From NCBI GenBank assembly GCA_020722485.1, contig DYKS01000002.1:1-41128 (forward strand): a DNA stretch of 41,128 nucleotides, written 5' to 3'. Below the pieces are notes generated by a model, which saw nothing but the letters and a program-made list of their open reading frames with translations, made no database searches and was not told the DNA's origin. Numbering within the stretch: position 1 is the first letter of the stretch; each line of letters begins with the position of its first letter. Both the position numbers and the translations under genes were made by a program. The DNA is from Candidatus Elulimicrobium sp. Its GTDB lineage: Bacteria > Patescibacteriota > Minisyncoccia > Moranbacterales > UBA9337. Below, piece by piece: positions 159 to 30,417 of the stretch.

Positions 159-2315
159 ATGCTTGATCTAAGAACTCCAATTGAAAAATTCGCTCGCCTG
201 AAAACCAGCCAACAGAAAGCATTGGAAAAACTAGGCTTAAAAACAATACGCGATTTACTTTTTCATTTTCCGTTTCGTTATGAAAATTATTCTTTGATTT
301 CCCCCATCGCCGACATTTCCGCCGGAGAAGTTTTTACCGTAACGGGAAAAATAATAGACTTCTCCGTCCAAAGAACTTGGAAAAAAAGAATGTTGATAAC
401 GGAAGCGTTATTACAAGATGAAAGCGGCGCCGTGCGCGCTCTTTGGTTTGGACAAAAATTTTTGCAAACATCTTTAAAAATTGGAAAAGAAATTCGCCTT
501 TCGGGTAAATTATCCGCAGATGAAAAAGGTCTTTATTTTTCCAATCCCGCTTGGGAATTTTCCATGCGTCAATTCACTCATACCGGCCGTTTGGTTCCTG
601 TTTATCCAGAATCGGAAGGCATTACTTCCCGCTGGCTTCGCTGGCAATTAGAATTAATTTTTAAAAAAGGTTTTAGCATCCCCGATCCTTTGCCGGAAAA
701 AACTCGCGCGAAATTACATTTGCCAGAAATAAACTCCGCCTTGCGTCGAATTCATTTTCCTCAAACCGAATCTGATTACATAGTAGCACGCAAAAGATTT
801 GCTTTTGAAGAAATGTTAATTTTACAAATTAAATTTCTGCGCGTAAGAGCAAAATTAAAAAAAGAAAATTCCGCCACAATAAAATTTAATTCGCGATTAA
901 TTAAAAAATTTATTGGCGAACTTCCCTTTACGCCGACAAACGCTCAAAAAAAAGCCGCTTTTCAAATTTTGAAAGATTTAGAAAAACCACAACCAATGAA
1001 TCGTTTGCTAAACGGAGATGTCGGCTCCGGTAAAACTTTAGTAGCCGCTATTGCCGCTTTGCAAACTTCCGTCTCCGGTTTTCAAACAGTCATTTTAGCG
1101 CCAACCGAAGTTTTAGCGCGACAACACTTTGAAAGTTTTTGCGAGATTTTTAAAAATTACAATCTTAATATTGGATTGCTGACGAATTCATATAAGTTAA
1201 CCTGTCATTCTGAATTTACTTCAGAATCTCATAAAAAATCTTGGAAAATTCCCAAACAAGTTCAAAATGACAATAAAAAAAATACCAATATTATCAAAAC
1301 AACTCGTCCCAAATTATTAGAAGAAATAAAAAATGGAGATATTGACATCCTCATCGGCACGCACGCTATTATTCAAAAAGACGTTAAGTTTGAAAAATTA
1401 GCGTTAGTCGTTATTGACGAACAACATCGTTTCGGCGTTGCGCAACGCGCTTATCTTCAGCAAGAAACAGCGAAAATAAATGATGGCCTACCTAAAAAAA
1501 TCCCCCACTTATTAAGTATGACCGCCACTCCCATTCCTCGCACGTTGACAATGGCTTTCTTTGGCAACTTAGATGTTTCTTTTTTAGATGAAATGCCCAA
1601 AAATAGAAAACCAATCATCACTCGCCTAATTGCGCCAACAGAAAAAGAAAAAATTTATGCTTTTGTTCGCGATCAAATTAGAAAAGGTCGTCAAATATTT
1701 ATTATTCTCCCGCTAGTAGAAGAATCCAAATCGTTAGCGGAAGTAAAAGCGGCTATTTCCGAGCATAAAAGATTATCTGAAGAAATTTTTCCCGATTTAA
1801 AATTAGGACTTCTCCATGGAAAAATGAAACCGGCAGAAAAAGAAAAAGCGATGCAGGCTTTCTTGGAACACAAAACCGACATTTTGGTTTCTACCGCGGT
1901 AGTGGAAGTTGGTGTAGATGTTCCCAACGCGTCCGTAATGATTATTGAAGACGCTAATCGTTTTGGTCTTTCTCAGTTGCATCAATTTCGCGGACGCGTC
2001 GGACGAGGATTATTTCAATCTTATTGTTTTCTTTTCTCTTCTCAAATTACCGCGCGGCTAAAAATACTGGAAAAAAGCAATGATGGTTTTCAAATTGCCG
2101 AAAAAGATTTAGAATTGCGCGGTCCAGGAGAATTTTTAGGCACTCGTCAAAGCGGTTTACCTGACATAACGATGGAAAACATCGCCAACATTAAATTAAT
2201 TCAACTTTCCCGCCAAGAAGCACTAGAAATTTTGCGTGAAGATTTTTCCCTTACTAAATATCCTGTTCTCCGCGCGGTTTTAGAAAAAATAGAAATTAAA
2301 ATTCACTTAGAATAA
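159..2315 (+). CDS. recG: ATP-dependent DNA helicase RecG
   Basis: 718-aa ORF with an ATG start. Helicase motifs are GDVGSGKT (Walker A), LAPTEVLARQH, VIDEQHRFG (DEQH box), MTATPIPRT and QLHQFRGRVGRG. The N-terminal wedge/OB-like region is typical of RecG. It carries an extra ~30-aa segment between motifs Ia and II (see findings). Confidence 0.9.
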   Translation: MLDLRTPIEKFARLKTSQQKALEKLGLKTIRDLLFHFPFRYENYSLISPIADISAGEVFTVTGKIIDFSVQRTWKKRMLITEALLQDESGAVRALWFGQKFLQTSLKIGKEIRLSGKLSADEKGLYFSNPAWEFSMRQFTHTGRLVPVYPESEGITSRWLRWQLELIFKKGFSIPDPLPEKTRAKLHLPEINSALRRIHFPQTESDYIVARKRFAFEEMLILQIKFLRVRAKLKKENSATIKFNSRLIKKFIGELPFTPTNAQKKAAFQILKDLEKPQPMNRLLNGDVGSGKTLVAAIAALQTSVSGFQTVILAPTEVLARQHFESFCEIFKNYNLNIGLLTNSYKLTCHSEFTSESHKKSWKIPKQVQNDNKKNTNIIKTTRPKLLEEIKNGDIDILIGTHAIIQKDVKFEKLALVVIDEQHRFGVAQRAYLQQETAKINDGLPKKIPHLLSMTATPIPRTLTMAFFGNLDVSFLDEMPKNRKPIITRLIAPTEKEKIYAFVRDQIRKGRQIFIILPLVEESKSLAEVKAAISEHKRLSEEIFPDLKLGLLHGKMKPAEKEKAMQAFLEHKTDILVSTAVVEVGVDVPNASVMIIEDANRFGLSQLHQFRGRVGRGLFQSYCFLFSSQITARLKILEKSNDGFQIAEKDLELRGPGEFLGTRQSGLPDITMENIANIKLIQLSRQEALEILREDFSLTKYPVLRAVLEKIEIKIHLE
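1203..1272. repeat. In-frame copy of the MITE core (TGTCATTC-hairpin-GAATC ... TTCAAAATGACAATA) inside recG
   Basis: tgtcattc-tgaa-tttac-ttca-gaatc ... ttcaaaatgacaata has the same order and spacing of blocks as intergenic copy A (tgtcattc-ccgcg-aag-gcggg-gaatc ... ttcaaaat..aaaatgacaata). It coincides with the extra peptide CHSEFTSESHKKSWKIPKQVQNDNKK. Confidence 0.45.
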
Positions 2316-4188: not shown

Positions 4189-4372
4189 TGTTAGATTTCA
4201 CAGTGTTGTTTACATTTTCGGCTAATTATTTCCATTGTCATTCCCGCGAAGGCGGGAATCCAGTCTTTCTAACGCTTCAAAATTTTCTAAAATGACAATA
4301 TTTTTCACTAGTGTTTAAAAAAATTCCGAAATGATGTAAAGAGAAATGTAAATAACGCTAATTAAATTAACA
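4189..4372 (-). mobile_element. MITE-like intergenic repeat, copy A (short form)
   Basis: Imperfect terminal inverted repeats: left tgttagatttcacagtgttgtttacattttcgg, and the reverse complement of the right end tgttaatttaattagcgttatttacatttc..tcgg. The core is attgtcatt-cccgcgaaggcggg-aatcc ... aaaatgacaat. It is homologous to copies B, C and D. Ends are approximate. Confidence 0.6.
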
Positions 4373-10665: not shown

Positions 10666-10873
10666 TGTTGTAAGAATTGCTAGACTTTCTTCATCTGTTA
10701 TTCCAGAATTTTTGAAACGTTAGCGGAGAAAATTATTGTCATTTTAGAAAATTTCGAAACATTAACAGAACTGGATTCCCGCCCGCGCGGGAATGAGGAA
10801 TGATATGGAAAAAGCGGGAATGACAAATAGAAATAATTAGCCAAAAATATAAACAATGCGATAAAATCTAACA
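10666..10873 (+). mobile_element. MITE-like intergenic repeat, copy B (long form)
   Basis: attattgtcattttagaaaatttcgaaac..ctggattcccgcccgcgcgggaatgagg..gcgggaatgacaaatagaaataattagccaaaaatataaacaatgcgataaaatctaaca aligns block for block with the reverse complement of copy A. Ends are approximate. Confidence 0.6.
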
Positions 10874-20815: not shown

Positions 20816-20845
20816 AAAACAAGTTTAGGATGACATTATAATATT

Positions 20846-22503: not shown

Positions 22504-22774
22504 TATTAAATTTTACAGCGCTATTTACATCTTTGGCAATTATTTCTATTTGTTTTTTATGTCATTCCCGCGTTTTTTATATCATTCCTGCGAAAGCGAG
22601 AATCCAGTTTTTCTTTTTTATCACATATAAATTTCAAATAAATTTTCTGCTAGCGCTCTAAAATTTTCCGCAATGATAAATATGAAAATTCAAAAATTTA
22701 GAGCCTCTTTTTTGATTAAGATAATTTCCCGAATTTCTTTTATTTCTCTTTAATATTGAATAATCTCAATTAAG
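22504..22774 (-). mobile_element. MITE-like intergenic repeat, copy C (long form, right arm degenerate)
   Basis: ttacagcgctatttacatctttggcaattatttc..tgtcattcccgcg..atcattcctgcgaaagcgagaatccag...gcgctctaaaattttccgcaatgataaata is collinear with copy A. The right boundary is uncertain. Confidence 0.5.
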
Positions 22775-30279: not shown

Positions 30280-30417
30280 AATTGAATCTTTGTCATTAAA
30301 GTAGATTCCCGCCAGAGTTTGACCTCGTGAAAACGGGGGCGGAAATGATAGGGAAAACGCAAGAATGACAAATAAAAATAACTAGCCGAAAAGCAAATAA
30401 CGCAATGAAATCTAGCA
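30280..30417 (+). mobile_element. MITE-like intergenic repeat, copy D (long form, left arm degenerate)
   Basis: tgtcatt..gattcccgcc..gggcggaaatgata..gcaagaatgacaaataaaaataactagccgaaaagcaaataacgcaatgaaatctagca is collinear with copy B. It abuts the gatB stop codon. Confidence 0.5.

Follow-up and report, generated by a model that had tools for sequence, protein, structure and literature searches.

The RecG helicase of Candidatus Elulimicrobium sp. (GenBank assembly GCA_020722485.1) has an extended stretch of residues directly after helicase motif Ia, which raises the question of where this additional segment comes from. We analyzed the 41,128 nucleotides that contain its gene (positions 1 to 41,128 of contig DYKS01000002.1, hereafter the window; working label C37), belonging to a genome (G000) of 596 kb with 34.6% GC, 39 contigs and 93% completeness. 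Very probably, the 70 nt at positions 1203-1272 within recG derive from a small mobile hairpin element, of which they are a miniature non-coding copy inserted in frame.

The host gene recG (159-2315, plus strand) is an uninterrupted open reading frame (ORF) of 718 residues with the Pfam domains RecG_wedge, DEAD, Helicase_C and RecG_dom3_C. For its product, an AlphaFold2 model was built from 60 homologues (mean predicted local distance difference test, pLDDT, 80.9); its top structural match was the RecG structure 1GM5 (E 2.7e-47), and all invariant RecG columns are retained in the insert-bearing protein. The best-scoring RecG homologues are named Candidatus Moranbacteria (Patescibacteria, candidate phyla radiation, CPR), the nearest being 63% identical. 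Between the aligned blocks ...LLT(N) and R(P)KLLEEIKNG, 39 residues are found here versus 6 in RecG of T. maritima (1GM5), and the insert coincides with a gap relative to that structure. The spacing from motif Ia to GTHA is 83 residues, compared with 54-55 in the shortest common form of the Moranbacteria (range 52-99 among 104 close homologues). Both comparisons thus give about 30 extra residues after motif Ia, the number at which the initial annotation had arrived by comparison with E. coli RecG. Also, the DNA quoted there was recovered as an exact match at 1203-1272, with the frame open as described.

The element (1203-1272, plus strand) has TGTCAT...ATGACA ends and consists of two inverted hairpins of the layout GTCAT-stem-loop-stem-ATC placed head to head. 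Its left arm (1203-1228, plus strand; TGTCATTCTGAATTTACTTCAGAATC) is identical to TGTCATTCTGAACTTGTTTCAGAATC at 23 of 26 positions and forms an intact hairpin with a perfect 8-bp stem (ATTCTGAA/TTCAGAAT) and the 5-nt loop TTTAC, followed by CTC. A spacer of 18 nt (1229-1246, plus strand), aligned to the variable center of the profile described below, separates it from the right arm (1247-1272, plus strand; AATTCCCAAACAAGTTCAAAATGACA), an inverted module which agrees with GATTCTGAAACAAGTTCAGAATGACA at 22 of 26 positions, counted by eye, and whose own stem is mostly lost. In frame, the 70 nt correspond to the codons of C349-D371 and the first base of N372 (CHSEFTSESHKKSWKIPKQVQND). The hairpin pair accounts for most of the roughly 30 extra residues, namely about 23 of them. 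The A-rich rest of the extra loop (1273-1301, plus strand; NKKNTNIIK) lies outside the element according to the orthologue alignment, with pLDDT below 50 through residue 374. A stop-free reading is available in just one frame of the element, and recG stays open because the element sits in this frame; the insert would be translated into protein.

For detection of related copies, an nhmmer profile was built from 22 intergenic inverted pairs of three relatives (G003, G026, G034), none of them from this genome. This profile aligned to 1203-1272 over profile positions 1-84 with genome-wide E-values of 1.4e-6 and 2.4e-5 for the two orientations. The profile ends coincide with 1203 and 1272, so the insert is exactly bounded by the repeat, a point for which the initial annotation had proposed a check. 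The recG site was the sole full-length profile match in the 596-kb genome, which has three copies of what we call the AT-rich subfamily, one full and two half. In a 28-mer search, the left arm in recG agreed at 25 of 28 positions with an intergenic module found elsewhere in this genome, on the minus strand at C33:8934 (TGTCATCCTGAACTTATTTCAGAATCTC) and 20 nt away from GC-rich modules, and a third module of the AT-rich subfamily is found at C30:3320.

The degenerate module pattern TGTCATYCYGAANNNNNTTCRGRATC was searched with at most one mismatch in this genome and in 40 relatives from its family and order. It is present in 20 of the 41 genomes (G003 92, G026 26, G017 19, G010 14 and G031 12 matches), and the reversed-pattern control gave 0 matches in all 41. 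The modules are frequently paired in inverted orientation with sharp TGTCAT...ATGACA ends, with pair lengths of 72 nt in G026 and 84-87 nt in G003, and across the 41 genomes a T as first base of the tag is the rule for the AT-rich subfamily. At least 120 contigs contain an exact 26-mer of this subfamily; the hosts belong to many phyla and comprise Bacteroidota, Alpha- and Gammaproteobacteria, Chloroflexota, spirochaetes, Elusimicrobia, Melainabacteria, Dependentiae, Rickettsiaceae and several CPR groups. Five complete elements compared with Rfam revealed no known RNA family; there were sub-threshold look-alikes of microRNA precursors and COG2827 RNA at E 0.23.

The insertion is lineage-specific. 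When the loop was masked and a tree was built from 104 RecG sequences, the protein studied here was the single insert-bearing row of a well-supported clade of 19 rows, the 18 others being without insert. The only other insert of the CCTGAA type (G031, P0007: CHPELVSGS...VQHD) belongs to the opposite half of the tree and has a different center. At the G031 locus (L003, G031:C22), the CCTGAA element seems to nest a second, GC-rich imperfect palindrome, CCTGCCCGCATCGC...GCAGGCGGGA, which is read as LPASLCEALQAG. In the AlphaFold2 model, the sole long segment with pLDDT below 50 comprises residues 353-374 (insert 349-372), and it sits between a well-modeled strand and a helix of helicase domain 1. 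The insert is thereby predicted to add a disordered surface loop to RecG, in line with the surface location that had been expected.

In the relatives, the same hairpins flank nuclease genes. Up to 15 small GIY-YIG genes are found per genome (frames of 80-140 residues, 50-70 bits, Pfam PF01541), of which the hairpin-flanked ones encode about 95 residues (PF01541, 60-70 bits) within units of 355-410 bp. By means of PF01541 and the module scan, AT-type hairpins around a GIY-YIG gene were located in G003 (C60, hairpins at 1426 and 1833, 408 bp, protein of 94 residues; L213) and in G010 (C27, 355 bp; L207). Further GIY-YIG genes between the same hairpins, identified with PF01541, lie at G003:C3:43591-44002 and G026:C4:15083-15446, and in G004 and G013 (L212, L219) the gene stands between GC-rich hairpins of the NTS type introduced below. 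Since GIY-YIG genes are bracketed by both hairpin types, the two would mark the ends of one kind of unit, from which the pairs without a gene would be miniature derivatives. By analogy with the Neisseria nuclease SsnA, the AT-rich hairpin may be the single-stranded substrate of a cognate GIY-YIG nuclease, with the AT-type hairpin of the G003-type unit (TGTCATCCTGAACTTGTTTCAGGATC) as a putative target. The PF01541 profile gave no match in the 93%-complete genome studied here; 37 of the 41 searched genomes have matches. A tblastn search of this genome with three of the small GIY-YIG proteins yielded nothing better than E = 0.02. As no PF01541 match was obtained, G000 is also without a recognizable UvrC N-terminal domain.

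The insert very probably originated as follows. A full, insertion-sequence-like unit of the length given above would consist of two hairpins bracketing the GIY-YIG gene, and gene-less hairpin pairs of 58-87 nt would derive from it as miniature forms. One such pair would have entered the recG loop between the LLTNS beta-strand after motif Ia and the next helix. There, the frame would have been kept open, and the extra residues would be read within a tolerated surface loop that is longer than the empty form. The copy in recG would now be immobile; it looks like a fossil because the genome is without a GIY-YIG gene and the stem of the right arm is lost. The insert is probably neutral, and mobilization would have been brought about by the nuclease.

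The same element also occurs in frame in other genes. At 30 sampled loci of the relatives, modules were found within long frames in 10 cases, and six hosts were confirmed by Pfam. In-frame hosts are LeuRS, which has a single module as well as a pair of 70 nt, a MiaB-like enzyme, a phosphoenolpyruvate-synthase-type enzyme and a Wzy-type protein; two further hosts are ELP3-like radical SAM genes carrying modules at the same site in opposite orientation. In the latter, KILNQVQDDK (L038, G029) and CHPELVLGSQ (L048, G011) are encoded, with the module just before ...HTYGKLT, a second repeatedly used site. The LeuRS gene (L053, G026:C1, about 174158-177183), with its in-frame single module and 70-nt pair, also contains a NUDIX domain (PF00293) at residues 446-546. 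The initial annotation suggested that the family can colonize essential genes; recG is not essential, but relatives have the element in frame in LeuRS and in the MiaB-like gene.

In genes, modules are invariably read as CHPELVSGS in forward and as ILKQVQDD in reverse orientation, the remaining frames containing TGA. Both arms are open only if the pair length equals 1 modulo 3, which is true of the 70-nt pairs in recG and LeuRS and of a 76-nt element in the RecG homologue P0036, and not of the intergenic pairs of 72, 84 and 87 nt. This length rule looks like a selective filter on the survival of in-gene copies.

Four known systems can be compared with the element. One of them is given by the CGTC-tagged repetitive extragenic palindromes (REPs), which come in four families, have a stem of 8-9 bp, a loop of 4-5 nt and a short tail, are mostly head-to-head dimers and include Neisseria dRS3 (CGTC-1) and the Rickettsia palindromic elements (RPEs) RPE-4 and RPE-6 (Di Nocera, De Gregorio and Rocco 2013, BMC Genomics 14:522, PMC3733652). 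Such dimers lie in frame inside genes, often of replication or repair, where they encode 20-30 residues, and no associated enzyme gene was found for them (PMC3733652). The recG element likewise has an 8-bp stem, a 5-nt loop and a short tail (in the left arm only, as the right-arm stem is decayed), is a head-to-head dimer encoding about 23 residues in a repair helicase, and belongs to a dispersed repeated family. Its GTC tag stands directly 5' of the palindrome, but the first base is T (TGTC-ATTCTGAA) instead of C. Also, its host is a member of the Patescibacteria, which are not among the five phyla listed in PMC3733652.

RPEs (Ogata et al. 2000 and 2002, summarized in PMC10969869) lie in frame in unrelated housekeeping genes, to which they add a peptide that fold and function are believed to tolerate. 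The parallel to RPEs drawn by the initial annotation was right in kind, since recG contains a palindromic repeat in frame, with conserved host motifs kept and a predicted surface position. RPE-1, however, is about 150 bp long with a conserved peptide, whereas the recG element is 70 nt with two short hairpins, and among RPEs only RPE-4 and RPE-6 are equated with CGTC REPs (PMC3733652).

The nuclease side is provided by SsnA, a small GIY-YIG nuclease which binds and cuts NTS as a single-stranded hairpin (Chenal et al. 2025, Nat Commun 16:2388, PMC11893778). Its gene lies between two NTS copies, an arrangement likened to an insertion sequence, and the Neisseria NTS CGTCATTCCCGCGMAVGCGGGAATCYRG contains dRS3 (PMC11893778). 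The Moranbacteria repeats have the same GTCAT-stem-loop-stem-ATC layout, and the single-domain gene of about 95 residues between inverted hairpins in sister genomes corresponds to the NTS-ssnA-NTS architecture. The GC-rich hairpin at 4236-4263 of the window (TGTCATTCCCGCGAAGGCGGGAATCCAG) is 27/28 identical to the Neisseria meningitidis NTS consensus, although the hosts belong to very distant phyla. By contrast, the AT-rich stem (TCTGAA/CCTGAA) deviates, by eye, from the Ssn SRM pattern HGTCWYN(0-2)YYVSBRHN(0-5)WNVSBRGN(0-2)RNCYNB in having T/A where V/S/B is needed, and in this genome no ssn-like gene was found. The Ssn paper mentions neither in-gene copies nor their translation nor Patescibacteria (PMC11893778).

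Finally, the initial annotation had called the element a miniature inverted-repeat transposable element (MITE). Features in common with Correia/NEMIS, ERIC and RUP are its small size, the lack of a coding sequence, inverted ends, many copies and the existence of a longer coding relative that ends in the same way. It departs from MITEs in that its ends are hairpins in their own right, no consistent target-site duplication was seen among 20 complete elements, and the coding relative carries a GIY-YIG nuclease and not a known transposase.

The event in recG has to be seen together with the history of this loop in the relatives. About 17-20 of the 104 RecG homologues have an insert at the same position which opens with CH.. 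(TGTCAT) and closes with ..ND or ..DD (AATGACA). These inserts comprise at least 10 stem types, including DSRFRGND, the translation of the GC-rich hairpin of this genome; they are unrelated in sequence and in length (between 0 and about 45 additional residues), and many lineages have an empty loop. All 32 signature peptides detected in RecG fall into this loop and 0 elsewhere in the protein, and the tree requires at least 11 changes between the filled and the empty state. P0036 is filled and its near-identical sisters are empty; a DNA comparison of P0036 with P0031 shows a clear element of 76 nt.

Several points weigh against insertion of a mobile element in recG. To our knowledge, nobody has demonstrated transposition of these hairpin elements. 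The length of 70 nt is not divisible by three; two additional bases must therefore have been acquired, and their source is not visible. P0036 and P0031, the only filled and empty alleles compared at the level of DNA, have different flanks too; insertion and allele replacement are therefore not separable in this pair, and both fit it equally well. Among 20 complete elements no consistent target-site duplication emerged, and 242 unique flanks revealed no target consensus. Furthermore, an assignment of the relatives' small GIY-YIG proteins to the Ssn subfamily failed, with sub-threshold matches only in NCBIfam and none in the PDB, and the published work on Ssn shows nuclease activity and an effect on transformation only (PMC11893778).

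Part of this evidence is equally expected if the element arrived by homologous recombination, with the loop or the whole recG allele coming from another, already filled Moranbacterium. We regard such an arrival as unlikely. Besides the differing flanks of P0036/P0031, P0013 and P0036 have insert and flanks in common, yet each has close relatives with an empty site. The presence of at least 10 element types in one loop with no target consensus points in the same direction, and Ssn hairpins are linked to transformation and recombination in Neisseria (PMC11893778). Against this, no donor allele resembling the insert was found, the G031 insert being distant on the tree and different in its center; with the nearest RecG only 63% identical, a recent exchange would be untraceable.

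The concentration at one spot also leads to a stronger idea, namely that the loop after LLTNSYK is a dedicated landing site and not merely tolerant. It is based on GC- and AT-rich types, nested copies and deletion remnants which in Moranbacteria occur at one spot and nowhere else in the 700-residue protein, and we consider it doubtful. If true, the hairpins would target a structural feature or an existing hairpin, or loop alleles would recombine under selection for a variable RecG surface.

It is very unlikely that the insert was co-opted, either as a structured mRNA or DNA site with nuclease-related or regulatory function or as a variable surface loop with a function in RecG. In its favor, the left hairpin has remained perfect although three bases close to it have changed, and as RNA the two arms pair together (-13.3 kcal/mol, z = -2.4). 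The loop is recurrently occupied in Moranbacteria, and intragenic CGTC REPs are reported to favor repair genes (PMC3733652). A selected function is at odds, however, with inserts that are unrelated in sequence and length and absent from many lineages, with a decayed right arm in a region predicted to be disordered, and with the missing cognate nuclease gene.

In the initial annotation, the insert was derived from the GC-rich intergenic repeat of the same genome, the CCGC/GCGG stem being exchanged for TGAA/TTCA by compensatory change inside recG. This GC-rich repeat is a mosaic of TGTCATTCCCGC half-sites, the hairpin TGTCATTCCCGCGAAGGCGGGAATCCAG and a tail ending in AAAATGACAATA, with about 30 copies in the genome and four in the window: copy A (4189-4306, plus strand; identified from the sequence and the GC-rich profile), which contains the above hairpin at 4236-4263, copy B (10728-10873, minus strand) and copy C (22504-22680, plus strand), both from the repeat search and the GC-rich profile, and the degenerate copy D (30280-30417, minus strand; repeat search). 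The proposed common architecture was borne out as far as termini and layout are concerned: the recG insert has TGTCATTC, GAATC and the 12-mer AAAATGACAATA in common with copies A and B, and TGTCATTC occurs 6 times in the window versus 1.15 expected. Also, both hairpin types are 20 nt apart at C33 and flank GIY-YIG genes in the relatives. A derivation of the recG insert from the GC-rich repeat is nevertheless highly improbable. A single-copy nhmmer search with copy A recovered about 30 genomic copies, with the recG site absent at E up to 10, and a profile of 8 full GC-rich copies placed recG at background (rank 467 of 622, E = 600, 12 nt aligned), so that membership in the GC-rich family is not supported. 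The proposed test with a profile of genomic copies thus failed for the GC-rich type and succeeded with the AT-rich profile. A replaced stem is contradicted by the finding that the AT stem is native to a separate widespread subfamily, TGTCATYCTGAACTTGWTTCAGRATC, as the consensus of an abundant independent group, and the right arm fits the AT-rich inverted module and not the tail of the GC family. AT-rich and GC-rich types are sister subfamilies of one superfamily, with common termini, common layout and the same kind of GIY-YIG gene between the hairpins in relatives.

A chance likeness of an ancestral, fast-evolving low-complexity loop, for which its hypervariability, the simple 7-nt tandems often seen in relatives and the unexceptional single-stranded DNA fold (z = -0.8) could be adduced, is effectively refuted by the end-to-end profile match over exactly 70 nt (E of about 1e-6 genome-wide), the empty reversed control in 41 genomes and the missing insert in 18 of 18 other clade members.

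Insertion of a miniature hairpin element in frame belongs to a class of events already described in the literature, to which the recG case adds a member. Protein-coding palindromes, known from Rickettsia and a few other groups, are thereby extended to the CPR. Also, a single clade now connects in-frame copies with GIY-YIG units of the Ssn type between hairpins, which supports the unproven idea that these units are mobile. For annotation, inserts of 20-30 residues in CPR proteins with CHPELVSGS, ILKQVQDD, DSRFRGND or LRFARND are to be regarded as repeat-derived and not as lineage-specific functional motifs, and such peptides should be masked in alignments and trees. A text search of the literature with the encoded peptides CHPELVSGS and MLKQVQHD or the CCTGAA hairpin string found no papers. 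The recurrent RecG loop provides a tractable case for studying the site choice of such elements and is the one aspect that might repay more work.

Some further observations concern the repeats in the window and in the genome. A weak intergenic half-module of the AT-rich subfamily (AAAACAAGTTTAGGATGACA; 20816-20835, plus strand; nhmmer E 0.34) is covered by no ORF of at least 80 residues and directly adjoins the apparent start of a minus-strand gene (...TTTTTTCAT). A noisy whole-genome scan for generic GTCAT hairpins (15 matches versus 9 in the reversed control) revealed no further convincing in-gene copy; a hairpin copy at C10:12727 precedes a probable start codon.

In several relatives (L002, L004, L010-L012, L016-L018 and L021), the RecG loop is filled by 7-nt tandems instead of hairpins, the length of which varies between sister genomes; the units are AAATTCA (read KFKIQNSKL), GTCATCA, TTTCGAG and ATTTCCG. 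At L015 (G039:C6), a near-perfect palindrome of 40 nt (AAATCGGAGCTCAACTCCGATTCGGAGTTGAGCTCCGATTT) is translated in frame in the loop. A second, different insertion site in RecG was found between helicase motifs II and III, where P0004 has a PD-(D/E)XK domain (PF13366) inserted in frame (query residues 427-448); this domain of about 170 residues is present in six RecG homologues of 845-880 residues (P0004, P0005, P0006, P0050, P0073 and P0119).

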